From positions 9,647 through 73,646 of the forward strand of contig ONSR01000004.1 of the NCBI GenBank assembly GCA_900320565.1: 64,000 bases of DNA, in the 5' to 3' direction. The first letter of the stretch is position 1. The number at the start of each line of letters is the position of its first letter. A program made the translations under genes and the position numbers. This document shows, piece after piece, positions 2,342-64,000 of the stretch. Source of the stretch: an uncultured Prevotellaceae bacterium. Lineage in GTDB: Bacteria > Bacteroidota > Bacteroidia > Bacteroidales > Bacteroidaceae. The notes under the pieces were generated by a model. It did not search any database, had not been told where the DNA came from, and worked only from the letters and a program-made list of their open reading frames with translations.

Positions 2342-4216
2342 ATGAAAAACTTTAACGAATTGGGGCTTGCCGAACCGCTCTTGCAAGCCATCGGAGAGTT
2401 GGGATATGAGCACCCGATGCCTGTGCAGGAGGAAGTCATTCCATACCTGCTGAACAATGATACAGACCTTGTTGCTCTGGCACAGACCGGCACAGGAAAG
2501 ACGGCGGCTTATGGGCTTCCGCTGCTCCAACAGTTAGTCCATTCCGACGGACCGACAGTAGTTATACTCAGCCCGACACGCGAACTCTGTCTGCAGATTG
2601 CCGACGACTTGGAGGGCTTCAGCAAATATCTGCCTGAGACGGAAATCGTGGCTGTCTATGGCGGCACAAACATCGAGCCGCAGATACGTGCCCTGCAACA
2701 TGGCGTGGACATCATCGTGGCAACACCTGGCCGATTGATGGACCTGATGAACCGTGGTGTAGCAAACCTCTCGAAGGTGCAATACGTTGTGCTCGACGAG
2801 GCAGACGAGATGCTCTCGATGGGCTTCCAGGAAGAGCTGGACAGCATCCTCGCAGGCATTCCCAGCCAGCATCGCACCCTGCTCTTCAGCGCCACAATGA
2901 GTCAGGAGATAGAACGCATCGCACAGAACTACCTGACCGATGCCAAACAGATTCAAGTGGGCAGTCGCAACGAAGGCGCCGAGAACGTCAACCACATATA
3001 TTATATGGTACACGCGCGCGACAAGTATCTCGCCTTGAAGCGCGTCGTCGATTACTATCCCCGCATCTATGCCATCATCTTCTGCCGTACACGACTCGAG
3101 ACACAAGAGGTAGCTGACAACCTGATTCGCGACGGCTACAACGCCGATGCCTTGCACGGCGAATTGTCTCAGCAGCAGCGTGAACTCACGATGCAGAAGT
3201 TTCGTCGGCATCGCATCCAACTGCTTGTGGCAACTGATGTGGCAGCTCGAGGCCTTGATGTAGATGACCTGACACACGTCATCAATTACGGCATGCCCGA
3301 CGATGTGGAATACTACACGCATCGCTCTGGCAGAACAGGTCGCGCAGGCAAGAAAGGCACGAGCATTTGCATCATCGGTATTCGCGAGAAGAGTAAGATA
3401 AAGCAAATAGAGAAAGAAATACAGAAGACGTTCGAGCAAGGCACTTTGCCCGAGCCGCGCGACATCTGCACCAAGCAACTCTATCACGTTATCGACGACA
3501 TCGAGCGCATCGAAGTCGATGAGGAAGAGATTGCACCCTTCATGGAAGAAGTGCAGAAGCGTTGGGAATGGCTCGACAAGACTGACCTCATCAAGCGTGT
3601 GCTCTCCCGAGAGTTCGGTCGTTTCCTGCAATACTATGCAGTAGAGGCTCCCCTTTCATCTCCCCAAGAAGGGGAGAAATCATCCCGCTCAAGAGACAAG
3701 AGAGGTGCTGGGAAGCGAACAGCCGAGGAAGGCTACGTCCGTCTGTTCCTCAATGTTGGCAAGATAGACGGCATGTATGCCAGGGAAATCATCGGCCTCA
3801 TCAACAAGAATGTGCAAGGCGACAAGGTGGCTGTGGGACGTATCGACCTGATGAAGAACTTTTCGTTCATCGAGGTGAAGCAAGACGACCTAAACCGAGT
3901 CATGAAGGGCTTGAAGCATGGCGTAACAGTAAAGGGCAGAAGTGTGGTCTGCGACATAGCAACGGATGAACCTCAGCAGAAGGATAATAAGCCCATTCGC
4001 AAGGAAAAGCCTGCCAGCAAGCCTCACCAAGAGAAACGGGGCAAGCCGTCTCGCGAAGAGCGTGGCTACACGGCTCCTCGAGGCAAGAAGTATTATAAGA
4101 AAGAGGATTGGATGAAGTTCCTCAACCCAGATAAACCCAAGAAAAACAAACTGAAAGGCGAAGTTCCCGACTTTAGCGAAGAAGGTTGGGCAAGACGCAA
4201 GCCAAAGAAGAAATAA
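2342..4216 (+). CDS. DEAD-box ATP-dependent RNA helicase with Lys/Arg-rich C-terminal tail
   Basis: MKNFNELGL start, AQTGTGKT (Walker A), VLDEADEM (DEAD box), HRSGRTGRAG motif VI. Track ORF trimmed to the ATG just after the promoter box. Confidence 0.9.
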   Translation: MKNFNELGLAEPLLQAIGELGYEHPMPVQEEVIPYLLNNDTDLVALAQTGTGKTAAYGLPLLQQLVHSDGPTVVILSPTRELCLQIADDLEGFSKYLPETEIVAVYGGTNIEPQIRALQHGVDIIVATPGRLMDLMNRGVANLSKVQYVVLDEADEMLSMGFQEELDSILAGIPSQHRTLLFSATMSQEIERIAQNYLTDAKQIQVGSRNEGAENVNHIYYMVHARDKYLALKRVVDYYPRIYAIIFCRTRLETQEVADNLIRDGYNADALHGELSQQQRELTMQKFRRHRIQLLVATDVAARGLDVDDLTHVINYGMPDDVEYYTHRSGRTGRAGKKGTSICIIGIREKSKIKQIEKEIQKTFEQGTLPEPRDICTKQLYHVIDDIERIEVDEEEIAPFMEEVQKRWEWLDKTDLIKRVLSREFGRFLQYYAVEAPLSSPQEGEKSSRSRDKRGAGKRTAEEGYVRLFLNVGKIDGMYAREIIGLINKNVQGDKVAVGRIDLMKNFSFIEVKQDDLNRVMKGLKHGVTVKGRSVVCDIATDEPQQKDNKPIRKEKPASKPHQEKRGKPSREERGYTAPRGKKYYKKEDWMKFLNPDKPKKNKLKGEVPDFSEEGWARRKPKKK

Positions 4217-4224
4217 TAAACACA

Positions 4225-6369
4225 ATGAAGAAAATATTCCTTTGCGCCATTCTATGCGCAATTACATCCCTTTCCCGTGCCGACGAAGGCATGTGGATGC
4301 TGAATCGTATTGACGAGAAAACGGCTGCAGCCATGAAAAGCCTTGGCCTGCAACTTACGCCCGACCAACTCTACAGTACTGAACATGCAAGCCTCAAGGA
4401 CTGTGTGGTCGATTTCGGAGACTTCTGCTCCGGCGTCGTGGTGAGTCAAGACGGACTTGTTTTCACGAATCATCACTGCGGATACGGCGCCATCCAGAGT
4501 CTTTCGACACCCGAAGACGACATCCTGACGAACGGCTTTGTGGCCCACAAACGCAAGATGGAACGCCCCGTCGATGGGCTGTTCGTGAAGTTCCTGCAGC
4601 GCACGGAAGAATGTACAGAACGTATCATGCAGGCACTGGATGAGGTTTACAAGGCTCATCCCGACGAGTCGAAGGCCGAACTCAGCAAGCAATACACAGA
4701 CAGCATCATGGGTGCCGTCGAGAAGGAACTGCAGGAAGCCAACCCGGGACTTGAGTGCCTGGTGAAACGCTACTATAGCAGCAATGCTTTCTATGCAAGC
4801 TTCTACAAGATCTATCGCGACATCCGACTCGTCTTCACCGCAACTGAGACGCTCGGCAAGTTCGGCGGCGACACCGACAACTGGATGTGGCCTCGCCAGA
4901 CCTGCGACTTTAGCGTGTTCCGCATCTATGCCGACAAGAAGGGAGAGCCTGCCGACTATAGTCCGAAGAACGTGCCTCTGCGCTGCAAGAACTACGCCCG
5001 CATCGCCACAGACGGCTTCCAGAATGGTGACTTCTGCATGACTGTTGGCTACCCGGGAAGCACCAGCCGATACCTCAGTTCATGGGGAATCGACGAACGC
5101 GTCAATGCCATCAATGTCAGCACAATACAGGTCAGAGGCAAGAAGCAAGAGGTGTGGAAGCGCTTCATGGACGCCGACCGAGCCGTCGGCATCAAGTACG
5201 CCAGCAAATGGGCCAGCAGCAGTAACTACTGGAAGAACAGCATCGGCATGAACAAAGCCATAGCCGACCTCGAAGTCATCAAGCAGAAACAGCAACTCGA
5301 GGACAAAGTCAGACAATGGTACGGCAGCCGAGCCGACCTCTCCGAACGCTTCGGCGAGATGTTCCAAATGCTTGAAGAAGCTTACGGAAAGCGTCGCGAC
5401 GATGTCTTCGCTGCAGGTTTCTTCCGTGAGACCTTCATGCGAGGCATCGAACTCTATCGCGTAGCCAACATGATTAACTCGATGCCCCAAGATGCAGACA
5501 GCACCGAGGCAGCTCAAGTGCGCAGTCGCATGGAGTCCTTCTTCAAGGATTATGACGCCAAACTCGACGAGGCCACGATGATTGCTCTGCTGCGAAACTA
5601 CCGCAAGCAAGTGCCCGACAAAGACTACCTGCCCGAGTGCTACAACACCATCGACAGCCTGTATGGGGGCGACGAGGCAGCCTACGCACACGATGTCTTT
5701 GCCCGAACCATCTGCTTAGACCCGTCGGCTGTGGATAAGGTGCTGGCCGACAGCACCCTGCGCGACACTGACCTCGGACTGCTTTATGCAGATGGCATCC
5801 CCACGAAGTTTCAGGAGATAAGTGGCAGCTGTCGCGATGCTTCCACCATCATCGACTATAACGAGCACCTACTGACGCAGGCACTCCTCGAGATGGACCA
5901 GGAGAATCCACACTACAGCGACGCCAACTTCACCATGCGACTCTCTTACGGCTACATCCAAGACTACACGGCTGGAGGCACGCACCACCAGTACTACACC
6001 AATGCGCAAAGCCTGCTCGACAAAGCCGCCAAGCAGGGAGAGATAGAAGACTACAAGCTGGAGGACGACATCATCAGCCTGCTCCAGAAAGGCGACTGGG
6101 GACGCTATGCCGACAAGACGACCGGCGACATGCATCTCTGCTTCCTCTCCAACAACGATATCACGGGTGGCAACTCTGGCTCGCCCATGTTCAACGGCAA
6201 AGGAGAACTATTGGGTCTGGCCTTCGACGGCAACTGGGAGGCCATGTCGGGCGACATCTCGTTCGACAGCAACCTGCAGCGCTGCATCGGAGTCGATGTC
6301 CGCTTTGTCCTCTTCGTTATAGACAAATGGGGAAAAGCCAAGAAGCTTATTAAAGAGCTAAAGCCTTAA
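4225..6369 (+). CDS. S46 family dipeptidyl-peptidase (DPP7/DPP11-like)
   Basis: Signal peptide followed by ADEGMWML, and GGNSGSPMFNGKGELLGLAFDGNWE near the C-terminus. Both are typical of peptidase S46. Confidence 0.85.
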   Translation: MKKIFLCAILCAITSLSRADEGMWMLNRIDEKTAAAMKSLGLQLTPDQLYSTEHASLKDCVVDFGDFCSGVVVSQDGLVFTNHHCGYGAIQSLSTPEDDILTNGFVAHKRKMERPVDGLFVKFLQRTEECTERIMQALDEVYKAHPDESKAELSKQYTDSIMGAVEKELQEANPGLECLVKRYYSSNAFYASFYKIYRDIRLVFTATETLGKFGGDTDNWMWPRQTCDFSVFRIYADKKGEPADYSPKNVPLRCKNYARIATDGFQNGDFCMTVGYPGSTSRYLSSWGIDERVNAINVSTIQVRGKKQEVWKRFMDADRAVGIKYASKWASSSNYWKNSIGMNKAIADLEVIKQKQQLEDKVRQWYGSRADLSERFGEMFQMLEEAYGKRRDDVFAAGFFRETFMRGIELYRVANMINSMPQDADSTEAAQVRSRMESFFKDYDAKLDEATMIALLRNYRKQVPDKDYLPECYNTIDSLYGGDEAAYAHDVFARTICLDPSAVDKVLADSTLRDTDLGLLYADGIPTKFQEISGSCRDASTIIDYNEHLLTQALLEMDQENPHYSDANFTMRLSYGYIQDYTAGGTHHQYYTNAQSLLDKAAKQGEIEDYKLEDDIISLLQKGDWGRYADKTTGDMHLCFLSNNDITGGNSGSPMFNGKGELLGLAFDGNWEAMSGDISFDSNLQRCIGVDVRFVLFVIDKWGKAKKLIKELKP

Positions 6370-6381
6370 GTCATTCTCGAC

Positions 6382-7044
6382 TCACAGCTTATCGCCGTAT
6401 GCTAAGTCGCCCGCGTCGCCAAGACCCGGCACGATGTAGCTGCGCTCATTGAGGACGGGATCGATGGCAGCGCACCAAAGCTCCACTTCTTCGTACTCGC
6501 CAAAGCTCTTCTGTATGTGTGCAACGCCTTCCTCACTGGCAATGACGCTTACCAGGATGGCACGACGCGGCCTTCCGTTCTTGAGAAAAGCAACCAGCCC
6601 CAGCTCCAGACTATAACCCTTTGCCAGCATAGGATCGACGATGATGAGCGTCTTGTCGGTCAAATCGGGCGAAGCCATATACTCCACATTCACGCCCACC
6701 TTGCTGCATTCCTTGTCCTTATAGTATCGGAAGGCACTAACGAAGCCATTCTCCGCATGGTCAAAGACATTGAGGAAGCCCTGATGGAAGGGCAGTCCGG
6801 CGCGAAAGATGGTGGCCAGCACAATGTTCTCCGAGAGGCGTTGGCACTTGCACTCGGCCAACGGCGTCTGCACCGTCGTCTCCTTATAACTGAGGTCTTT
6901 GCTTATTTCGAACGCCATCATTTCCCCGATGCGCTCCAAGTTCCGGCGGAAGCGCATGCGATCCTGCTGAATCTGTACATCCCTGAGTTCACTCACATAC
7001 TGGTTGATGACGCTCGGCGTCTCGCTCATATTGACTACTTTCAT
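6382..7044 (-). CDS. upp: uracil phosphoribosyltransferase
   Basis: 220-aa ORF with a Upp-like N-terminus (VINQYVSELRD...RMRFRRNLERIGE) and a PRPP-binding stretch LIIVDPMLAKGYS. Confidence 0.85.
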   Translation of the reverse strand: MKVVNMSETPSVINQYVSELRDVQIQQDRMRFRRNLERIGEMMAFEISKDLSYKETTVQTPLAECKCQRLSENIVLATIFRAGLPFHQGFLNVFDHAENGFVSAFRYYKDKECSKVGVNVEYMASPDLTDKTLIIVDPMLAKGYSLELGLVAFLKNGRPRRAILVSVIASEEGVAHIQKSFGEYEEVELWCAAIDPVLNERSYIVPGLGDAGDLAYGDKL

Positions 7045-7071
7045 GGTCGTTTAATTTAATATTGCTGCATG

Positions 7072-7079
7072 CAAAGATA
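7072..7079 (-). promoter_or_regulatory. -7 box TAtcTTTG (upp)
   Basis: The reverse complement of caaagata lies 28 nt upstream of the start at 7044. Confidence 0.55.
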
Positions 7080-7172
7080 TAAAAAAGATTGAAGATTATG
7101 GACTGCAAGCCCTAGATTTTTATGTCTAAATGCAAAGTTTGCTTTGCAAAAAAGCACGCAAAACAAAAACTT

Positions 7173-53784: not shown

Positions 53785-56016
53785 TTATATTCCTTGCTGA
53801 AGGAATAAGGTGCTGCATCGGCCGACGTGCCGCGCTGCTGGTTGGGCTGCGACTGCATGGTGTAGTCCATCTTCATGGCCATACTCTGCACCGTTGACCT
53901 TGAGAGTGCCTACATAGCGGTTCACGTCGCTCTGCTGAGGAGCAGTGATGACCACCTGCTTGCCATTCTCGAGATGGAGTGTCATCTTCTTGAAGTAAGG
54001 CGCACCAAGCACATACTCGCCGCTGCCGGGGCAGACGGGATAGAAGCCCATCGCCGTGAAGATATACCAGGCGGATGTCTGTCCATTGTCTTCGTCACCA
54101 CAATAGCCATCGGCATGAGCATTATACATACGATTCATGGTCTCACGAAGCCAGTACTGTGTCTTCCAAGGCTGACCACTGTACGCGTACATATATATCA
54201 TGTGCTGGATGGGCTGATTGCCGTGGGCATAGTTACCCATATTCATAATCTGCATCTCGCGTATCTCGTGGATGACGCCGCCATAGTAGCTGTCGTCGAA
54301 GATGGGAGGCAGAATGAACACACTGTCCAGCATCTGGTTGAAGACATCGTTGCCTCCCATGAGGTCGATAAGGCCCTGTGGATCATGGAACACGCTCCAA
54401 GAGTAGTGCCAACTATTGCCTTCTGTGAAAGCATCGCCCCACTTGAAGGGATTGAAGTTGGGCGCCCACTCGCCATTGGCCAGCTTGCCGCGCATCAGGT
54501 TATGGCTCTTGTCGAAGAGATTCTTGTAGTTAAAGGCATGCTCGGCATAGACCTTGATTTCCTTCTCTGGCTTGCCGAGTGCCTGACCGAGCTTGTAGAT
54601 GCTCCAGTCATCGAAAGCATACTCGAGGGTACGAGCTGCGCTCTCATTGATGCTGTCATAGGGAACATAGCCCAACTTGTTGTAGGTCTGCCACTGCTTA
54701 CGGCCGCTTGTCGTGCGAGGCAGGTCGGCATTAGCGCCATGCTTCACTGCATCCCAAAGTGCGTCAATATCATAGCCGCGGATGCCCTTGAGGTAAGCGT
54801 CGGCCACTACACTTGCGGAGTTGTTGCCCACCATGCATGCACGATGACCCGGCGCACTCCATTCGGGCAGGAAGCCACTCTCTTTGTAAGCATTCGCCCA
54901 GCCTTCCTGCATCTTCTGGCTCATACTGGGGTACATCAGATTGACCAGTGGGAAGAGGGCGCGGAAGGTGTCCCAGAAGCCTGTGTCGGCAAAGAGATAG
55001 CCCGGCAGCACCTCGCCGTTGTAGGGACTGTAGTGCACGACCTCGCCCTTCGCATTAATCTCGAAGAAGCTGCGAGGGAAAAGGGTGCTGCGATAGAGGC
55101 AGCTGTAGAAGGTACGAAGCCTATCGACATCGCTGTTGTCGTCCACATCGATGACACTCAGCACCTTGTTCCATTCCTGACGGCCAGCCTCGGAAACTTC
55201 CTCCAGACTCTTATTGCCAAGTTCCTTGAGGTTCTGTTCTGCCTGCTCGATGCTGATGAAGGAACTGGCCACACGCACGTTGATCTGTTCGCCGCGCTTT
55301 GTCTGGAAGCCCACAGCTGCAGCTGCGTGCTTGCTCTTCATCTCGAGGTCCTTACTCTCCTTGCCTTCATCTGCTGTTGAGGTGTAAGTGAAAGGACGGT
55401 CGAACTGCAGGACGAAGTAGTTCTTGAAGTTGCGGGGAACGCCTCCGCTGTTGCGTGTGGTATAGCCCACTACCTTGTTCTCGCCAGGGATTACCTTGAC
55501 GTAAGAGCCGCGGTCGAAGGCATCGACAATGACGAAACTCTTGCCCTCGGGCATGGTAAAGCGGAAGATGGCAGCACGATTGGTGGGAGCTATCTCGGTC
55601 GTGATGTCGTAGTCGGCAAGATACACCTTGTAGTAGTGTGGCTTGCTGACCTCTGCCTTGTGGCTGAACCAACTGGCGCGACGGTCCTCGTCATAGATGG
55701 GAGCCTCGCCGCATTCGGGCATGATGTTGAACATTGCATAGTCGTTCATCCAAGGACTTGGCTGGTGAGTCTGCTTGAAGCCGCGTATCTTCTCGGCATC
55801 ATAGGTATAGCACCATCCGTTGCCCATCTTGCCTGTCTGAGGCGTCCAGAAGTTCATGCCCCAAGGCACGGCGATGGCGGGATAGGTATTACCTGTGGAG
55901 AGTCCGCCTGTGGAGTGTGAGCCGACGAGCGGATTAACGTACTGCACAGGGTCGTCTATGGCGTAAGTGCTTACGCAAAGGAGTGCGGCAATGGTTGCCA
56001 GAATGAGTTTCTTCAT
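53785..56016 (-). CDS. GH92 alpha-mannosidase; the last roughly 25 codons are probably out of frame
   Basis: VNPLVGSHSTGG...TYPAIAVPWGMNFWTPQT and GDEDNGQTSAWYIFTAMGFYPVCPG. See the finding on the 3' end. Confidence 0.8.
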   Translation of the reverse strand: MKKLILATIAALLCVSTYAIDDPVQYVNPLVGSHSTGGLSTGNTYPAIAVPWGMNFWTPQTGKMGNGWCYTYDAEKIRGFKQTHQPSPWMNDYAMFNIMPECGEAPIYDEDRRASWFSHKAEVSKPHYYKVYLADYDITTEIAPTNRAAIFRFTMPEGKSFVIVDAFDRGSYVKVIPGENKVVGYTTRNSGGVPRNFKNYFVLQFDRPFTYTSTADEGKESKDLEMKSKHAAAAVGFQTKRGEQINVRVASSFISIEQAEQNLKELGNKSLEEVSEAGRQEWNKVLSVIDVDDNSDVDRLRTFYSCLYRSTLFPRSFFEINAKGEVVHYSPYNGEVLPGYLFADTGFWDTFRALFPLVNLMYPSMSQKMQEGWANAYKESGFLPEWSAPGHRACMVGNNSASVVADAYLKGIRGYDIDALWDAVKHGANADLPRTTSGRKQWQTYNKLGYVPYDSINESAARTLEYAFDDWSIYKLGQALGKPEKEIKVYAEHAFNYKNLFDKSHNLMRGKLANGEWAPNFNPFKWGDAFTEGNSWHYSWSVFHDPQGLIDLMGGNDVFNQMLDSVFILPPIFDDSYYGGVIHEIREMQIMNMGNYAHGNQPIQHMIYMYAYSGQPWKTQYWLRETMNRMYNAHADGYCGDEDNGQTSAWYIFTAMGFYPVCPGSGEYVLGAPYFKKMTLHLENGKQVVITAPQQSDVNRYVGTLKVNGAEYGHEDGLHHAVAAQPAARHVGRCSTLFLQQGI

Positions 56017-56030
56017 TGTGTTTTGCTTTT

Positions 56031-56062
56031 TAGGATGTCCTAGGCTTTCTTAGGAAACCTAG
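56031..56062. repeat. 10-bp phased CCTAGG array (3 units), DUF1080-GH92 spacer
   Basis: taggatgtcc taggctttct taggaaacct ag. Confidence 0.85.
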
Positions 56063-56064
56063 TA

Positions 56065-56823
56065 TTACAGTTCCTTAATCTTTACGTTCTTGTACCAAAC
56101 CTCGTCGCCGTGGTCCTGCAGGAGGATGCGGCCGTCGCGATTGCCGAAGTCGGGCCAGTTCTTATACTTGCTGTAGGCCACGAGTGCATTCCACTCTTGG
56201 GTGTTGCGCTCGTACTCAAGCAGCTTCACGCCATTGAGCCAGTGCTCTACATGGTTACCCTTCACGATGACCATGGCGGTGTTCCATGCAGTGATGTCGA
56301 AAGGCTTCTGCTCGGGAGCGGGGATGAGGTCATAGAGCGAGCCGAGCTTGCGATTGCCCTTCACGCCAAGCTTGGCATCGGGATGACGCAGGTCGTCGAG
56401 CACCTGGAACTCGCAGCCGATGGCACTGCCTTCGCCCTGGTTCATGTCGGGATCGACGAAGTACTTGATGCCGCTGTTGGCGCCCTCGGTAATCTTGAAA
56501 TCAACCTTGAGGATGAAGTTGTGGTAGATCTTGTCGGTCACGATGTCGCCGCCATTGCCGCTCTCGGCGCCATTGGCTTTCTCGACCTTGAGCACACCGT
56601 CCTCGATGCGCCATCCCTTTTGGGGGAAGGTCTGCAGCTTTGCACCGCGCCAGCCATTGGTTGTCTTGCCGTCCCAAAGGAGTTTCCAGCCTTCGCGCTG
56701 CTCCTGTTCTGTGAGCACGTTATCAGTCGTTGGCACGGGAGCAGGCTGTTCTACTACTTTCTTTACTTTTGCAGATGCAGGCAGAATGGCCAGCATCATC
56801 ATAGCTAATACTATCTTTTTCAT
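56065..56823 (-). CDS. DUF1080 (3-keto-disaccharide hydrolase family) protein with signal peptide
   Basis: [16 protein letters not shown]...[10 protein letters not shown]...NSGIKY...[13 protein letters not shown] pattern. Confidence 0.75.
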
Positions 56824-56840
56824 TGTGTTTGTTTATTTAT

Positions 56841-56890
56841 AGGAGGCCCTAGGAAGTCCTAGGCTTTCCTAGGATGTCCTAGAATGTCCT
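56841..56890. repeat. 10-bp phased CCTAGG array (5 units), oxidoreductase-DUF1080 spacer
   Basis: aggaggccct aggaagtcct aggctttcct aggatgtcct agaatgtcct. Confidence 0.9.
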
Positions 56891-56893
56891 TGT

Positions 56894-58324
56894 TTAGTCA
56901 ATCTTATAGAACTCTTCCCATCCTCTGCGAGGAGGCATGCCGCTGAGCATAGCGTTGGCGAACTCGTTGTTGGTGAACTTCTTTGTCCTTGGATCGAAGA
57001 AGAGCTGGGTGTTCAGGCGCTGGGCGATGACACCGAGGCAGAAGACCTGGCACAGCACACCTGCAATCTGGAACGGAGAACGCGTCTTCTCTTCTCCCTT
57101 GCAGGCACGCAGGAAGTTGACATAATGGTTGCTCGGGCTCTTGGGAACCTCGGGCAGTTTGTCCTTCATGGCTTCTGCCTTCTCCTTCGGGATAATCTCG
57201 AGCGTGCTGCCGTGGCTGGCTCCCTTGAAGGTAAGGTCGCGTCCGTAGATAATCTTACCTGGGTTGAGCTTCTGCTTCGTGTATTCGCCCTGACCGCTTG
57301 CGGGGATGCCGTCGGCCAACTTACTCTCGCCATATCCTTCGGGCAATGGGGGCAGGTTGTCCGTGCCGTCGTACCAGATGACGTCGCAAGGAGGCATGTT
57401 GCCACGAGCGCCGAAGCGGAACTCGATGGTGCTGCTGAAGGGATAGAAGAACTCATTGTGGTTCTTCGCGTACTTCATGTTGATTTCGTAGGGCAGGCCG
57501 AGGTTGAGGAACTCGTGAACCGTGTCGAGCAGATGGGCTCCCCAGTCGCCAAGAGCTCCCATTCCAAAGTCGTACCAGCTACGCCAATCGCCCTGATGAT
57601 AGAGCTTGCTGAAGTTGTGGTAGCGGATGCCTCCGTGCCAGGTGTCATAGTCCATACCTTCGGGGATAGGATCGCCCTCGGGCATCTTGGTCATGTTCCA
57701 GTCGTACTTGTGCCAACGACGGTCGTTGTTCATATGAGCCACCACCTTGGTCACGTCCTTGATGATGCCAGCTTCCTGCCAAGCTTTGAACTGGAAGTAG
57801 TTAGCCTCGGAGTGTCCCTGGTTGCCCACCTGAGTGGCGAGTTCGGGGTGACGGTTAGCCATCTCGATGAGGATTTCGCCCTCCTGGAAAGTACGGATAA
57901 GGGGTTTCTCGCAATAGACATGCTTGCCGTGCTTCATGGCAGCCATGCAGACGAAGAAGTGCGTATGGTCGGGCACACTGACAGCCACAGCGTCGAAGTG
58001 GTCGCTATACTCGTCGAAGAGTTTGCGGAAGTCCGTGTAACGCTTGGCATTGGGATACATCTTCAATGCCTTCTCGCACTGCTTGCCCTTCAGATCGACG
58101 TCGCAGAGAGCCACGACATCCACCATGTTTGTCTTGGCGAACTCGTCGATGTTCTGCTGACCGCGATTACCGATACCGATGTAGGCAATCCTTACTTTCT
58201 CATTCTTAGGCTCTGGAGCAGGCTGCACCTTTTTCTTCTTGGCAGCCAACATCGAACCGGGAGCCACAGCCAAACCAGCCGTAGCCAGTCCCATTCCCTT
58301 AAGGAAATCTCTTCTTGTTGACAT
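56894..58324 (-). CDS. Gfo/Idh/MocA family oxidoreductase with twin-arginine signal
   Basis: MSTRRDFLKGMGLATAGLAVA TAT signal. IAYIGIGNRGQ Rossmann start. VYCEKPL. Confidence 0.85.
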   Translation of the reverse strand: MSTRRDFLKGMGLATAGLAVAPGSMLAAKKKKVQPAPEPKNEKVRIAYIGIGNRGQQNIDEFAKTNMVDVVALCDVDLKGKQCEKALKMYPNAKRYTDFRKLFDEYSDHFDAVAVSVPDHTHFFVCMAAMKHGKHVYCEKPLIRTFQEGEILIEMANRHPELATQVGNQGHSEANYFQFKAWQEAGIIKDVTKVVAHMNNDRRWHKYDWNMTKMPEGDPIPEGMDYDTWHGGIRYHNFSKLYHQGDWRSWYDFGMGALGDWGAHLLDTVHEFLNLGLPYEINMKYAKNHNEFFYPFSSTIEFRFGARGNMPPCDVIWYDGTDNLPPLPEGYGESKLADGIPASGQGEYTKQKLNPGKIIYGRDLTFKGASHGSTLEIIPKEKAEAMKDKLPEVPKSPSNHYVNFLRACKGEEKTRSPFQIAGVLCQVFCLGVIAQRLNTQLFFDPRTKKFTNNEFANAMLSGMPPRRGWEEFYKID

Positions 58325-58605: not shown

Positions 58606-58642
58606 AAAGAAGGGAGGTGCCTACTCTGTGGCACCTCCCTTC
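58606..58642 (-). terminator. hairpin after the 52-aa small ORF
   Basis: 13-bp stem gaagggaggtgcc / ggcacctcccttc. Weak T tract (ttta) on the minus strand. Confidence 0.5.
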
Positions 58643-58667
58643 CTATATAGAACAGATGAGTTGTGAA

Positions 58668-58826
58668 TCACCAGCCAAAGTCCCAGCCGTCTTCGCCGAC
58701 GGCTTCTTCTTTGACGAATTCCTCGTTGCCGGGTTCGTCCGACATCTGTATGCTTGTTACCAGAAGTGCATCAGCCACCTCGGCCATGTCCACCTTTACG
58801 ATGGGTGAAATATATGTCTTTTTCAT
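58668..58826 (-). CDS. small ORF (52 aa), paralog of 63039..63218; not in ORF track
   Basis: My translation: MKKTYISPIVKVDMAEVADALLVTSIQMSDEPGNEEFVKEEAVGEDGWDFGW*. The ATG lies 1 nt after the upstream stop, and a hairpin follows the ORF. Confidence 0.45.
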   Translation of the reverse strand: MKKTYISPIVKVDMAEVADALLVTSIQMSDEPGNEEFVKEEAVGEDGWDFGW

Positions 58827-58910
58827 CTTACTTGAGTATCTTTTTGCCGTTAATGATGTTGACGCCTTTCTGCATCTTGTTCATGCGCTGACCTGCAAGG
58901 TTGTAGATGG
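58807..58910. repeat. about 104-bp dispersed duplicate (partner 63199..63302): CTD end, stop codon, start of small ORF
   Basis: Collinear by eye with roughly one mismatch per ten bases over the first 85 bp or so. Confidence 0.8.
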
Positions 58911-61900
58911 ATTGACCATTGACCATTGACCATTTACTATTGAGGTCGCTGATGCCAGTCTCATCGTCACCGAAGATGATATTGAAGGCTTTGACGCTGG
59001 AAGACTCTTCGATATGGCTGCGGAAGCCAGTCACATTCTCGCCTGTGTAAGGTTTGAAGGCAGGACCACTCTGCAGGGTATATACATTTGCTGCGATGCT
59101 TGTCCTGGCCTTTGTAGCCACACTGCCCACGAGGTCGCTCGTGTAATCAGCCTCATTGCTCTCGACGGTGAAGTCGTAAGTGCCTTCCGCTGCCTCAACA
59201 AGGACGCCTGTGCCTGCCTTCACGGCTTCTACTTCGTCAAAGTGGATGTATGTGTCGTTCAGGGTGGCGGCATAGAGTTTAACTCCTGCAGGAGCCGTCA
59301 GTCCGACGGGGCTGTAGAAGGTGGCCAGGCCAAGGCTCTTGACGGTAACGGGCACGGAGGTGACATCCTCTACAATCCAAGCATAGCCCTGATCGTTGTT
59401 GTAGCCGCTGCCACGGTCGATGGTGCCGTTGCTGTCCCTATGATAGGTGTAGCGGCTATTCGTCTGGATGGTGTATTTGCCCTCGTAGTAGCTGTTAGGC
59501 TCGATGGCTGCCTTGTAGTTGGTGCCAACAGGAGCCAGACCCTTGGCGTTGCCGTCGAGGTACTGTCCTGTCGTGTAAGACACCAGTCCGTCGTTGCTAT
59601 AGAACCAGAGCGTGGATGCCTCGTCGGCAGCTGCCACCTTAACCTCGCCGCTAACGACTGCCAGATAGGCTTCGGACTGCGTGCTCTTGAAGCGGTAGAA
59701 ATGTCCGGGGCGAGGAGTCTTCACTGCCTCGGCCTCTGCCTGCGCCTTGTCGAAGAAGTATTGGTTCAAGGTGATGTCCTTGATGTTGTGCGCCTTCTGA
59801 TAAACAAGGCAATAGCCTGTCGGAAGGTGGGTTTCGTCCTTTGCACTCTCCTCGAAGAGGATGTCCATTGTGCCGTCGCCATTGCCAAGGAGAATGGAGT
59901 ATGCTCCCCAGTTGTGTGTCACGTTCATGCCTTGCGTCCAGCTTGCACCGCCAGCAGTAGAGAAGTCGGCTGTGGTGAAGCCCGTTGCCTTGGGCAGGGC
60001 GATGAAGTAATACTGAATCTCGCGACGCTGCGGGCTGCTGGTCATAGGAGCCGTCTCGACGATGACGGTGTTCTTCTCGCCGTAAGCATCGTAGGCTTCT
60101 ACCATCTCCACGTCACCATTGCAGGACGTGGCGGCAGCATTGTTCCACTGGTTGGTGGGTCCCCACTGGCCTGTAGCCGTGTCGAAGTCGCTATAGTTGA
60201 ATACATTCACATAGCGAGAGGTGCTGCCCTTGCCGACAAGCAGAAGGTCGCCGTCGGGAAGTTCCACTACATGTGCCTCGTCGCCATTGTTGGCAATCTG
60301 GCCGCCAAGCACTTTCCATGTGGCGCCGAAGTCGTCGGAATAGACCACCACGTCGCCGCCGTTCACGTCAACAGCATTGTAGATACGGTTGTACTGGGCG
60401 CCTTCTGCCTTGCGAACAGACTGGATAATTCTGCCACTGGTGAAGAAGGAACGCACGATGCCGCTGCTGCCGTCGGCTGCACGGATGCCTGCATCCACGA
60501 ATGCCTGCATGAGGGCTGGCTGGATGTATTCGTAGTTGCCCCATGTCTCGCCGCCGTCGGTAGAGCGCCAGGCAACACATCCTTGCTGCTGCTGGCTGAC
60601 GTCAGGGTTATAGACAGAGCTCGTCCAGCGGGCATTACCGCCGCAGCAAACCATCAGGACGTCGTTGCCGGAGTTGCCGGGCGTATTGTCTGCCACAGCT
60701 GCAGGGTCGCCGAAGCTCCACTCGATGACGTTTGCTGTGTTCACGCCCCAGTTGCCCTGTGCCACACGGATGGCAGGACTCCATGTCTCGCCGCCGTCGT
60801 CACTGTAGCGACGCTCGATGCTCGTCGGGCCAATGCCCACATCGGTGTTGCCGGGACGGTAGTCGGCAAAGGCAATGATGCGACCGCTCTTTGTGCGGAT
60901 GATGGCAGGCAAACGATAGGCTTCGGTCATGTCTTCGTTGTAGTCGTACCAAAGGTTCAGGCCGTTGCCTGTGGAAGCCGTGTAGTTAGCCACAAGGGTA
61001 GCGCCGTCGGCCACTGAGGTAAGTTCACCGGCCTCAATGCTTGTGCCATAGTCTGTGCCGTCGATTGTGAAGCCCGTGAAGTCGTAGCCGCGATAGCTCG
61101 TAGCAATGGCGGTGAAGGTCATGTCGAGGTATTGCAGTCCCGTCACCTCGGTGTCGGCATAGAGATACTTGTTGAAGGTAGAGCCGTCGCTCAGTGCCAT
61201 AGTAATCTTGCCTGCACGTGTGTTCTCAGCCTCTGTGGCACCAGTCACGTTGACGGAAAGGTTGATGGTCTTCGTGTTGAGCAGGACTTCGATGGTTGCA
61301 ATGACATTGGTGGGGTCGAAGTCAGCTGCAGCGATGATGGCACAGGAGTTGCCTTCGTCTGTTGTCGTCCATGTATCGAATATCGCGCCTGTTGTCTTGC
61401 CTGATGTCGCATTCAGTGTCTTGCCGTTGCCTTGAATCTTGAACAAGCCGTGCGACACGCTGGTCAATGTGATTGCGACGGGAATGTTGCCTAAAGCCGT
61501 ACCGTCGCAGGAGACGAACTTCTCCTCTGCTATGCTCCAGAGGTAATACTTGCCTTCGTAGGAAATGATGGCGAAGTTGTTGACGCTATAAGCGCTGTTC
61601 TTAACCGTATTGGCCAGGCTGCCGTCAACAGTGGTATAAGTGCCGCGCGGGCACTTGATGGTGTAAGCCTTGCTGTTGCTCAACTCGCTGAGAGCCTCCA
61701 CAAGACCTTCCTTCTTATTTATATTAACCTTGATGGTGGTGTTTGCATCAGCAATGGTGCCTTCGGTCGTGATGTCGTAGGCAAAAGTGCTGTAGCCGTT
61801 GGTGAAGTCAGCAGGGATGTTGATGCTGCTGTTAGGCATGACGGTCTCTGTATGGGTCAGACCAGTAGCCACGCCGTTGACGTACTGTTCGTATGTCACA

Positions 61901-62934
61901 TCAATGGTGACAGTAGGAACCTCGACGGTCGTCTCATAGACATACCAGACGTTGTTGCCGCTGGTGCCGCTTACTGTGCCGCTGCCCCAGAAGGCGAGAC
62001 CATAGCCTGCACCGTTGTTATCGACGATGCTGCCGCTGGTGCTGTTCAGGTTCCAACCGAAGTAGCTACCGCTGCCGCCGTTGCTGTTATAGAAGGCGTA
62101 TGTGCCGGCGCTACCCTTGGAGGCAGTAGTCTTCAAGCTACCGTCAATCCAGACTCCGTTGGCAAACTGCATGTTGTACAGTCCTTCGCCTGCGCTGAAG
62201 AAGCGGACGAGGTAGGCAGCATTGTTCTTCGCATTTGTCTCGTTGAGAGAAGCTGGGGTGACAGTTGCTGCTGCACGCATCACGGTGTTGCCTGCACCTG
62301 CGTCGTACATGGGAGACTCGCCATTACGCACCTGCGTCACGATGTACCACTTGGTGTTGTCTGCCACATCGGTAACGGCGCTGATGCTCGACACCTTTTC
62401 ACCGACAGTGAGGAAGGCGTCGTCGGCAATGACTGGCTTCCACTGGGCGAACGCAGGGTCTTCGGTCAGTGTGATGGTGAATGAAGAGATGGCAATGCCG
62501 CTGTTGGGCGTGCTCTGCTGGAACGAAGTACTTGCTGTAGAGAGTCCCGAGACGGTGAGTGTCGTTGTTCCGCTTGTGGCGAACGATGTGGCCGTGCCGC
62601 CTGCAGCGGGCGTCAACGTCTGAGCTCCGCTCTGAGCAGTACCGGTGATGGTGTAGCCGGTGATGAGATAACCAGCCTGTGCCGTGAGGGTGTAGGTACA
62701 GCCCGAAGCACCGGAATAGATGTAGCCGGTAGAGACGGCGATGTTGTTTGCACCCACGGAGAGCGTCACTTGCGGGTCTGTTGCAGTGGACACCCACTTG
62801 CTTGCCCATGTGCCTGCTCCGTTGGTTGCCGTGTACGAACCTGTGCTCTTGCTGTAGGTCACAGTGTACTCCGTTGCCCACACACTAATGGTGCCAAGCA
62901 AGGCGGTGAGTAATAGGATAAGATTTTGTTTCAT
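58828..62934 (-). CDS. Asp-box (BNR) sialidase-like exo-glycosidase, 1368 aa, with T9SS C-terminal sorting domain
   Basis: Signal peptide. YRLPAIIRT (RIP-like). Asp boxes SDDGGETW, STDGGETW, SDDFGATW. Tail IYNLAGQRMNKMQKGVNIINGKKILK. Confidence 0.65.
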   Translation of the reverse strand: MKQNLILLLTALLGTISVWATEYTVTYSKSTGSYTATNGAGTWASKWVSTATDPQVTLSVGANNIAVSTGYIYSGASGCTYTLTAQAGYLITGYTITGTAQSGAQTLTPAAGGTATSFATSGTTTLTVSGLSTASTSFQQSTPNSGIAISSFTITLTEDPAFAQWKPVIADDAFLTVGEKVSSISAVTDVADNTKWYIVTQVRNGESPMYDAGAGNTVMRAAATVTPASLNETNAKNNAAYLVRFFSAGEGLYNMQFANGVWIDGSLKTTASKGSAGTYAFYNSNGGSGSYFGWNLNSTSGSIVDNNGAGYGLAFWGSGTVSGTSGNNVWYVYETTVEVPTVTIDVTYEQYVNGVATGLTHTETVMPNSSINIPADFTNGYSTFAYDITTEGTIADANTTIKVNINKKEGLVEALSELSNSKAYTIKCPRGTYTTVDGSLANTVKNSAYSVNNFAIISYEGKYYLWSIAEEKFVSCDGTALGNIPVAITLTSVSHGLFKIQGNGKTLNATSGKTTGAIFDTWTTTDEGNSCAIIAAADFDPTNVIATIEVLLNTKTINLSVNVTGATEAENTRAGKITMALSDGSTFNKYLYADTEVTGLQYLDMTFTAIATSYRGYDFTGFTIDGTDYGTSIEAGELTSVADGATLVANYTASTGNGLNLWYDYNEDMTEAYRLPAIIRTKSGRIIAFADYRPGNTDVGIGPTSIERRYSDDGGETWSPAIRVAQGNWGVNTANVIEWSFGDPAAVADNTPGNSGNDVLMVCCGGNARWTSSVYNPDVSQQQQGCVAWRSTDGGETWGNYEYIQPALMQAFVDAGIRAADGSSGIVRSFFTSGRIIQSVRKAEGAQYNRIYNAVDVNGGDVVVYSDDFGATWKVLGGQIANNGDEAHVVELPDGDLLLVGKGSTSRYVNVFNYSDFDTATGQWGPTNQWNNAAATSCNGDVEMVEAYDAYGEKNTVIVETAPMTSSPQRREIQYYFIALPKATGFTTADFSTAGGASWTQGMNVTHNWGAYSILLGNGDGTMDILFEESAKDETHLPTGYCLVYQKAHNIKDITLNQYFFDKAQAEAEAVKTPRPGHFYRFKSTQSEAYLAVVSGEVKVAAADEASTLWFYSNDGLVSYTTGQYLDGNAKGLAPVGTNYKAAIEPNSYYEGKYTIQTNSRYTYHRDSNGTIDRGSGYNNDQGYAWIVEDVTSVPVTVKSLGLATFYSPVGLTAPAGVKLYAATLNDTYIHFDEVEAVKAGTGVLVEAAEGTYDFTVESNEADYTSDLVGSVATKARTSIAANVYTLQSGPAFKPYTGENVTGFRSHIEESSSVKAFNIIFGDDETGISDLNSKWSMVNGQSIYNLAGQRMNKMQKGVNIINGKKILK
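58911..58934. repeat. (attgacc)x3.4 heptamer tract inside the T9SS tail-coding region of the sialidase-like gene
   Basis: attgacc attgacc attgacc attt, read on the minus strand as KWSMVNGQS. Confidence 0.9.
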
Positions 62935-63038
62935 GTTGGTTTATATTTGTTCTTTATAATATATATAATAATGTATTGAGAGCAAAGGGAGGTGCCTGCA
63001 TAGGCATCTCCCTAATACTATCGCTCTAGCGGCAATGT

Positions 63039-63218
63039 TTACCACTCATTGTCCCAAACATTCTTGTCGGTGATAGATGTGTTTTCTTCCTTGACCCAGC
63101 CGCCACTGGTGCCAGAGGCTGTTTCTCCTGTCAAATCTACAGGAATGGATTCAGCGAGCATCTGAATGCCGCGCAACTCAACGAGTATGAACTCGGGGGA
63201 AATATATGTCTTTTTCAT
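63039..63218 (-). CDS. small ORF (59 aa), paralog of 58668..58826; not in ORF track
   Basis: My translation: MKKTYISPEFILVELRGIQMLAESIPVDLTGETASGTSGGWVKEENTSITDKNVWDNEW*. The ATG lies 1 nt after the upstream stop. Confidence 0.45.
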   Translation of the reverse strand: MKKTYISPEFILVELRGIQMLAESIPVDLTGETASGTSGGWVKEENTSITDKNVWDNEW

Positions 63219-63302
63219 GTTACTTGAGAATCTTTTTGCCGTTAATAATGTTGATACCTTTCTGCATCTTGTTCATGCGCTGACCAGCGACATTATAGAT
63301 AG
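63199..63302. repeat. partner copy of 58807..58910
   Basis: gaaatatatgtctttttcat(g/c)ttacttgag(a/t)atctttttgccgttaat... is shared. Confidence 0.8.
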
Positions 63303-64000
63303 CACCCTCTGTTGTCTGTTGTCCATTGTCAATAGTCTGAATAGAGGTTGCATCATCCTCGAAGTCGAGAGCAAAGCCCTTGACACCACTGTTGTTGAGC
63401 TTCGATGCTTCAAGGTAAGCACGATTAGCCTTCAACGTTGTACCATCCCAGAGATAAAAACCAACTTTGTCGTTAGCTTTACCTAAGAAGTAATCTGTTT
63501 CTGCAGTAACTGTTTTTTCTAAATATGTGCCAGTGAGAGCAGTTGTTGTTAGCGGTGAAGTTACATATGCAGCATTGCTGGCAATAGTAGCAACAACTGT
63601 TCCTTCCGTATGACGCAAGAAAATAGGCGTGCCTGCGGGAACAACGCTCATGGCATCGCTCATTGTCAATCCGTTCTTGGCTCCGTTCAGTGTTAGTGTA
63701 TAAGCGCAAGCTGTCGAAAGAGTTACGTCATAGGGTAAGCATGCGGTAGCATAATAGTAACCGTCACCACCATCATTAAGGGTAATTGTTACAGACTCGG
63801 CAACTTCAAATTTCCAGTTTGCGTCTGGTGTATCAGATGTCCAAGCACTGACTTCACCATTATATACAGTATAGTACGAACCGTTGTCAGCAGAACTCGT
63901 ACGAATCATAGCGTATCCTGGATATTGAACTTCTAACGTAAAATAAGATGCCGGAGATGCATCTGCGAGTGATACAGCACGTCCTCCAGCAGCCACTTGA
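63220..64000 (-). CDS. T9SS-sorted surface protein, C-terminal fragment (5' end outside window)
   Basis: Frame is open to the window edge. The C-terminal 170 aa are collinear with the end of the 1368-aa protein. Tail IYNVAGQRMNKMQKGINIINGKKILK. Confidence 0.7.
   Translation of the reverse strand, partial: QVAAGGRAVSLADASPASYFTLEVQYPGYAMIRTSSADNGSYYTVYNGEVSAWTSDTPDANWKFEVAESVTITLNDGGDGYYYATACLPYDVTLSTACAYTLTLNGAKNGLTMSDAMSVVPAGTPIFLRHTEGTVVATIASNAAYVTSPLTTTALTGTYLEKTVTAETDYFLGKANDKVGFYLWDGTTLKANRAYLEASKLNNSGVKGFALDFEDDATSIQTIDNGQQTTEGAIYNVAGQRMNKMQKGINIINGKKILK

Follow-up and report, generated by a model that had tools for sequence, protein, structure and literature searches.

The window, by which we mean the whole 64,000-nucleotide stretch of DNA analysed (G000:C49:9647-73646), belongs to a genome of 2.63 Mb in 122 contigs that is 89% complete. 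Its reverse strand carries, at 58828-62934 (-), the gene of a BNR/sialidase-like secreted protein of 1368 aa, referred to below as the cargo. The protein has the N-terminal signal-like sequence MKQNLILLLTALLGTISVWA, matches BNR_3 and BNR_2 in a Pfam and NCBIfam scan, and partially matches the NF052328 neuraminidase model. Near its C-terminus is a beta-sandwich module that we call domain X (58999-59331 (-), or G000:C49:68645-68977; E 3e-29), and it finishes with a basic tail, IYNLAGQRMNKMQKGVNIINGKKILK (58831-58908 (-)), which is a short T9SS-CTD-like end. Farther downstream, a GFO_IDH_MocA-type oxidoreductase gene, a 3-keto-disaccharide hydrolase-like gene and a GH92 gene occupy 53785-58324 (-); they are assigned by synteny with the orthologous locus L163, where the gene order around the cargo is the same, and they suggest a glycan-utilisation neighbourhood for the sialidase-like protein. 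Tandem heptamer arrays, among them (AATGGTC)n, (TTGACCA)n and (GGTTAAC/GGTTAAAG)n, stand just after several members of the small-ORF family described below, with sites at 58905-58935 (-) in the window and in the flanks of paralogs on contigs C58, C104, C113 and C17. One array is translated in frame within the linker of the sialidase-like gene (SKWSMVNGQS), and a related leader-type sequence, ACCTTAAGGACTTTAAACAAGAA, is found 5' of three family starts.

The subject of this report is the small open reading frame (ORF) directly behind the cargo gene, at 58668-58826 (-) with its stop codon included (family HMM E 2.8e-11 and 2.9e-13). Its product is the 52-aa peptide MKKTYISPIVKVDMAEVADALLVTSIQMSDEPGNEEFVKEEAVGEDGWDFGW. 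Reading the sequence bears out the boundaries given in the preliminary description: the start codon is the ATG at 58826-58824, one G after the TAA (58830-58828) of the 1368-aa gene, and the stop is the TGA at 58670-58668. For an ortholog, one gene caller's version of the ORF is only 39 aa, begun at an internal Met. The peptide consists of a leader-like segment (residues 1 to about 22) with the motif YISP at residues 5-8 (58803-58814), a conserved Ser25 (58752-58754) and an acidic, Trp-rich C-terminus, DGWDFGW. Judged by inspection of the sequence, D, E and K occur across the first 25 residues, and there is no signal peptide or transmembrane segment. A GC-rich hairpin followed by UUUA is located 23 nt 3' of the TGA (58607-58644 (-); -29.5 kcal/mol, z -5.2, with 0 of 200 shuffles folding as well). 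The strong stem reported earlier is thus present, though RNAfold pairs 15 bp rather than 13. The hairpin is probably the intrinsic terminator of the cargo/small-ORF transcript; with so short a T-run, it was passed over by a simple terminator scan.

A paralog of the small ORF is found in the same window at 63039-63218 (-). It encodes 59 aa (MKKTYISPEFILVELRGIQMLAES...NVWDNEW; HMM E 4.3e-19), and, as described before, it is placed in the same way, its ATG 1 nt after the TAA of a neighbouring cargo gene. It too is followed by a hairpin (62979-63027 (-); -24.7 kcal/mol, z -3.6). The neighbouring gene encodes 936 aa; its 3' part (63220-64000 (-)) exits the window and includes domain X (63400-63753) and a tail like those of the sialidase-like gene, and the two cargo genes upstream of the small ORFs are tandem paralogs. 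When the junction regions of this pair are compared (58820-58910 with 63212-63300), about 93% DNA identity extends from the final ~65 nt of both cargo genes through codon 8 (the first 24 nt) of the small ORFs. Beyond the junction the two peptides share only about 30% of their residues; the cargo tails are nearly identical. This pattern suggests either gene conversion or a strong constraint limited to the junction of tail and start. The start MKKTYISP is indeed common to both copies, but because the junction DNA is near-identical, the shared residues partly reflect shared DNA rather than independent conservation, and they are weaker evidence than the preliminary description supposed. Far stronger than the window pair is the evidence from the family as a whole: 19 members in this genome and hundreds in others, with substitutions that are codon-phased.

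Conservation and distribution of the small reading frame

The family can be followed first at the same locus in related genomes. In the orthologous loci L161-L163, the 52-codon frame is kept behind the same BNR gene, and the sequence diverges sharply straight after the stop codon. Pairwise dN/dS among these orthologs, a check proposed in the preliminary description, is 0.15-0.30; for 83 main-subfamily members a median of 0.17 is obtained, and substitutions at codon positions 1/2/3 number 21442/16654/42066, a clear third-position excess. For a frame this short, missed by some gene finders and followed by structured RNA, one might think of a chance ORF or of non-coding sequence, such as a 3'-UTR or an RNA element. 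This reading is effectively refuted by the third-position excess and a dN/dS near 0.2, by amino-acid motifs that are kept where the DNA is not, and by the abrupt divergence of the orthologs right past the stop. Loss of the frame, or substitutions out of phase with the codons, had been named as results that would speak against a real gene; both were looked for, and neither is seen. The view that this is a real small protein accordingly holds, with a frame that is kept, dN/dS of 0.15-0.30 and a place behind CTD genes in many genera. The small ORF is under purifying selection and is paired with one class of cargo.

In its own genome, a motif scan combined with an HMM built from the paralogs finds 19 family members on 17 contigs. 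Eighteen of them follow, at a distance of 1-210 nt, a same-strand gene whose product ends in ...IYNxAGQRxxKxQKGINIxNGKKxLK. The sole copy lacking an upstream CTD gene (G000:C46:23054-23317 (-)) is missing the MKK start (…LLYYLSPEIIIVQLQ…VWDEEW) and may be a relic, decaying or relocated. Outside this genome, the question of whether homologs lie behind CTD genes can be asked of two sets, and the answer in both agrees with the placement first noticed in the window: the pairing is present in 43/52 loci from other genera and in 104/109 matches from rumen and cecum MAGs, Prevotella sp. CAG:755 and Alloprevotella. In the latter set, the distance from cargo stop to peptide start ranges from -7 to 386 nt and covers all three frames, which excludes fusion of the peptide to the cargo by read-through or frameshift.

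The family is found in 23 of 24 genomes of the genus (up to 20 copies each) and, across its bacterial family, in 67/150 genomes and 19 of 27 genera. When 149 genomes of the order but outside this bacterial family are searched with a more diverse profile, just one matches. At least 1504 protein clusters in the database match; all are called 'hypothetical' and none has a Pfam domain. Scanning eight family members against Pfam and NCBIfam gives nothing, the family profile matches no chain among the PDB sequences, and literature searches on T9SS and small ORFs turn up no account of the family. The ORF at 58668-58826 (-) is a genuine gene of an undescribed and unnamed family of acidic mini-proteins in Prevotella-like gut bacteria.

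Given this distribution, the similarity of the two window copies has to be weighed against the rest of the family. The near-identical DNA at their stop/start junctions, the likeness of their hairpins and the heptamer-repeat elements flanking several copies would fit a 3' cassette, made up of the tail end, the small ORF and the terminator, that recombines and is spread among cargo genes by gene conversion, with the peptide as a passenger of little function. The peptide is under purifying selection, however, its invariant residues are kept across many genera in DNA that has otherwise diverged, and intergenic distances and terminators vary between copies and orthologs, so we consider such a cassette very improbable.

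The peptide and the cargo module ahead of it

Features of the peptide were counted over 175 distinct family members. YxxP is present in 174, always with Tyr, and the Tyr is residue 5 in 144. In alignments A1 and A6, M1, K3, Y5 and P8 are invariant and the residue at P+2 is hydrophobic, giving KxYxxPxh; the Lys at Y-2 is taken from these alignments rather than counted over the 175. A Ser is found at Y+19 in 140 members, at Y+18 in 10 and at Y+20 or Y+21 in 20, hence between Y+18 and Y+21 in 170, and its context is h-[A/C]-x-S (LAES in 86) rather than FETxxS. Trp occurs within the last nine residues in 164. The median net charge is -6, and the middle of the peptide is variable.

On the cargo side, the genome encodes T9SS machinery, including SprA (2660 bits) and PorU (986 bits). 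The tails match the TIGR04183 (Por_Secre_tail) model weakly at best, one with E 0.004 and P0003 not at all at E<=1; their assignment to T9SS is made because the GxY/NIxNGKKxxK end is common to some 78 ORFs of the genome. Among these ~78 tail-bearing ORFs, all 18 with a trailing peptide match a full 88-position model that spans domain X and the tail, and none of the ~50 tail-only ORFs has a trailing peptide. Domain X marks the gene class with the small ORF. It is predicted by AF2, on a homologue, to be a confident beta-sandwich (model m7ae5d00d445f, residues 1-114, pLDDT >90). It belongs to no Pfam family, and Foldseek of the fusion model described below against the PDB gives a best match of only E 0.35. 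Up to 25 copies of domain X occur per genome.

This association raises the possibility that the peptide is an unmodified acidic partner of the cargo's C-terminal module, a reading we hold to be a serious, if lesser, contender. The peptide would bind domain X or the basic tail, for example by an added beta-strand and by charge pairing, and would hold, mark or escort the cargo end; its YxxP likeness to RiPP leaders would be incidental. The restriction of all 18 trailing peptides to ORFs with domain X plus tail, as opposed to tail-only ORFs, is what one would expect of such a partner. Over 150 genomes, 58 have both peptide and domain X, nine the peptide only, 20 the domain only and 63 neither; domain X is thus in 78/150, and at genus level its co-occurrence with the peptide is tighter than that of the enzyme trio introduced below. 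In many pairs the start and stop codons overlap or are separated by 1 nt, a sign of possible coupled translation, and the charges are opposite, with a peptide of net charge about -6 to -8 following a tail with six Lys/Arg.

Structure prediction adds a hint in the same direction. An AF2 alignment was assembled with, as its first row, a natural in-frame read-through at locus L094 (TAA read as Q), together with 23 further such rows and unpaired tails and peptides, and a check showed these to be correctly aligned. In the resulting fusion model, residues 24-32 of the peptide are predicted as a beta-strand (pLDDT ~81), the tail is at ~80 and the peptide leader is below 50; a model of the peptide by itself shows a helix of low confidence (mean pLDDT 64, pTM 0.27). 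The fusion model gives a hint that the core rather than the leader is able to pair with the C-terminal region of the cargo, but its output comprised neither coordinates nor PAE, and contacts can be forced by a covalent fusion. Other observations weigh against an unmodified partner. The cargo is exported by a Sec-type signal and the peptide has none, so that any contact between the two would be brief and confined to the cytoplasm. The two window copies follow nearly identical tails, yet the peptides are only ~30% identical, and neither the invariance of Y5 and P8 nor the orphan operon for an RRE, a kinase and a peptidase is explained.

A parallel for cargo with its own accessory gene exists within type IX secretion itself. 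T9SS cargo with a type B CTD has a cognate PorP/SprF-family gene alongside, as with SprB/SprF of Flavobacterium johnsoniae. There, as here, one C-terminal class of T9SS cargo has its own adjoining accessory gene, many times per genome. In the present case, however, the accessory is an acidic peptide of about 50 aa with no signal peptide and no sequence similarity to PorP/SprF, rather than an outer-membrane beta-barrel; the cargo tail is short, with an atypical type-A-like end; and the 52-aa product has no Pfam or NCBIfam match that would place it in that family.

An orphan enzyme operon and candidate processing in trans

The combination of KxYxxPxh and a Ser at a near-fixed distance recalls the precursors of the recently described linear polyphosphorylated peptides (LPPs). 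In LPP clusters, the LppA precursors share the motif YxxPxVLxHQxIxFET|xxS, of which K-18, Y-16, P-13 and V-11 contact the RRE (PMC13381572). The leader can be written K(-18)xY(-16)xxP(-13)xV(-11)L...FET|xxS(3), and S3 is polyphosphorylated (PMC13381572). The enzymes are LppB (the RRE), LppS (a SpI-like leader peptidase) and LppK (an HprK-like kinase) (Popov et al., Nat Commun 2026, PMC13381572). LPPs are stated to be restricted to Bacillota, and their function to be unknown (PMC13381572).

A corresponding set of genes is present in the genome under study, on another contig. One operon (C39:26592-28453 (-)) encodes a PqqD-type RRE, a SpI-like peptidase and an HprK-like kinase. The RRE (G000:C39:26592-26858 (-); PF05402, 56.8 bits) is the one clear discrete copy in the genome, and its match alone of the three exceeds the curated cut-off. 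The peptidase weakly matches TIGR02228 (archaeal-type signal peptidase I) and PF00717 (Peptidase_S24), with the Ser, His and Asp boxes GFSMRP, LHRII and QGDGN; the P-loop protein weakly matches TIGR04249 and TIGR04352 (ScmC, HprK-related kinase A). Within ~7 kb of the trio, no small YxxP ORF is seen in this genome, and the same is true of four other Prevotella-like genomes. By comparison, Bacteroides-like genera without trailing peptides have a small YxxP ORF on the trio's strand at 4/6 loci.

Complete LPP-like clusters are found in these sister genera of the same family. At L166 (G051:C1:592000-606000), positions 2437-7112 (-) encode, in this order, the kinase, the peptidase, the RRE, an NTP_transf_5 protein (PF14907), an ABC exporter and a precursor, MKVVEAYEKPSMQVYEMEPETALMAHS..., and similar clusters occur at L167, L169 and L174. 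NTP_transf_5 and the exporter adjoin the trio at L166 and L167; at L174 and L169 the cis precursor belongs to capsule-type loci, where the gene immediately after it encodes a large lipoprotein. LPP-like clusters thus exist outside Bacillota. In the genome under study, at its 89% completeness, PF14907 is not found, and no dedicated exporter is near the trio.

In the genus of the window, the trio adjoins a T9SS plug gene (PF17116, 138 bits) in 5/5 genomes checked, on the same strand in four; this adjacency was not found in other genera. Directly downstream of the trio in our genome is a 635-codon frame (G000:C39:24577-26484 (-)) that combines UPF0126/Gly_transporter (PF03458) with the T9SS plug protein (PF17116). 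The plug part has its own signal-like segment, and the frame represents either a true fusion or two genes with no stop codon between them.

With these observations in hand, we think that the small ORF may well encode a RiPP-type precursor that is processed in trans and tied to T9SS cargo. The product would be a very acidic cytoplasmic peptide of about 50 residues, of which the N-terminal ~22 (MKKxYxxPxh...h-A-x-S) would serve as a RiPP-type leader. It would be translated from the cargo mRNA, with a start overlapping or just past the cargo stop, and its KxYxxPxh would be bound by the single discrete PqqD-type RRE at G000:C39:26592-26858. The HprK-like kinase encoded beside the RRE would then phosphorylate the conserved Ser, and the leader would be removed by the SipW/archaeal-type signal-peptidase-like enzyme, as in LPP. 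Once freed, the acidic, Trp-ended core would act on or with the cargo's domain X and basic tail, or on the T9SS. For the small peptide itself, RRE binding, phosphorylation, cleavage and an effect on secretion are all steps that we infer.

Several likenesses to LPP argue for processing in trans. In both cases there is a small precursor with an N-terminal KxYxxPx[V/L], a conserved Ser after the Tyr, though at a slightly different spacing, and a variable downstream part, and the putative core starts here with AES or VTS (A-x-S), compared with AQS in LppA. A discrete PqqD-type RRE, a SipW/archaeal-type signal-peptidase-like enzyme and an HprK-like P-loop protein share one operon in the genome, and the full K-S-B-N-D-A gene set is borne by sister genera. 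The differences are as follows. The precursors here are dispersed, 19 per genome, behind T9SS cargo genes, whereas LppA is inside the enzyme cluster. The Ser is at Y+19 rather than Y+18, and four residues precede the Tyr rather than 11. The acidic Trp C-terminus is conserved, and neither the NTP transferase (LppN) nor the MsbA-like exporter (LppD) was found in the genome. Finally, the present family is from Bacteroidota, whereas LPPs are stated to be Bacillota-only (PMC13381572).

Co-occurrence can be examined as well. The kinase is present in 119/151 genomes, and in 66/67 peptide-positive genomes compared with 52/83 that are peptide-negative; the trio is in 79% of the bacterial family's genomes, so that finding it in nearly all of the peptide-positive ones carries little statistical weight, the genomes being related. 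The genome, sister-genus and co-occurrence tests support a trans-acting, reduced LPP-like system, with the reservation that related genomes are not independent samples. Against a precursor, the genes are scattered instead of clustered with the enzymes, the C-terminus is conserved too, unlike in typical RiPP precursors, and the occurrence of the family follows that of domain X more closely than that of the trio.

Two other maturation routes were considered. Lasso precursors have a YxxPxL leader recognised by B1 RREs (TfuB1, PDB 6JX3), and the YxxP motif is shared with the present family. The best NCBIfam and PDB sequence matches of our PqqD protein are likewise lasso B1 chaperones, the TfuB1 match being weak. 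The core features of lasso peptides are not seen in the family, however, and a lasso pathway was rejected, as no B2 leader peptidase of the transglutaminase type (PF13471) was found in the genome and no Asn-synthase-like cyclase is near the trio. A radical-SAM/SPASM maturase, which might introduce Trp crosslinks as in streptide or darobactin, was set aside: the genome has three SPASM proteins, none of them near any copy of the family.

A leader-plus-core design with a conserved Trp-containing C-terminus, and an ABC exporter in the related sister-genus clusters, would also suit an exported signalling or antagonistic peptide, pheromone- or bacteriocin-like, placed behind the cargo for co-regulation only. 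We find this improbable. The genome lacks NTP_transf_5 and a dedicated exporter near the trio, no immunity or sensor genes adjoin the copies, and a pheromone or bacteriocin locus does not look like a set of as many as 20 diverged copies in one genome, all linked to a single class of cargo.

Of the options raised in the preliminary description, that of a precursor peptide has gained the most specific support, from the KxYxxPxh leader, the Ser, the orphan operon and the cis analogues in sister genera. That of a partner of the cargo stays alive through the tight tie to one C-terminal module and the AlphaFold hint. The two are compatible: a processed precursor could also be a partner. In a more speculative version, which we would call rather doubtful as it stands, each cargo gene of one C-terminal T9SS class in Prevotella-like bacteria would carry its own precursor, and the single trio beside the T9SS plug gene would turn this into a phosphorylated acidic peptide that docks on the atypical C-terminal module or reports cargo load to the secretion machinery.

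We know of no small cytoplasmic factor for type IX secretion. If the speculative version were true, the peptides would add to type IX secretion a layer of peptide-based licensing or feedback, and would provide the first biological role for LPP-type peptides. More generally, size cut-offs hide a widespread gene family of at least 1504 clusters. With up to ~20 copies per genome, all tied to a single class of secreted surface enzymes of abundant rumen and gut Prevotella-like bacteria, this family links the T9SS and LPP fields.
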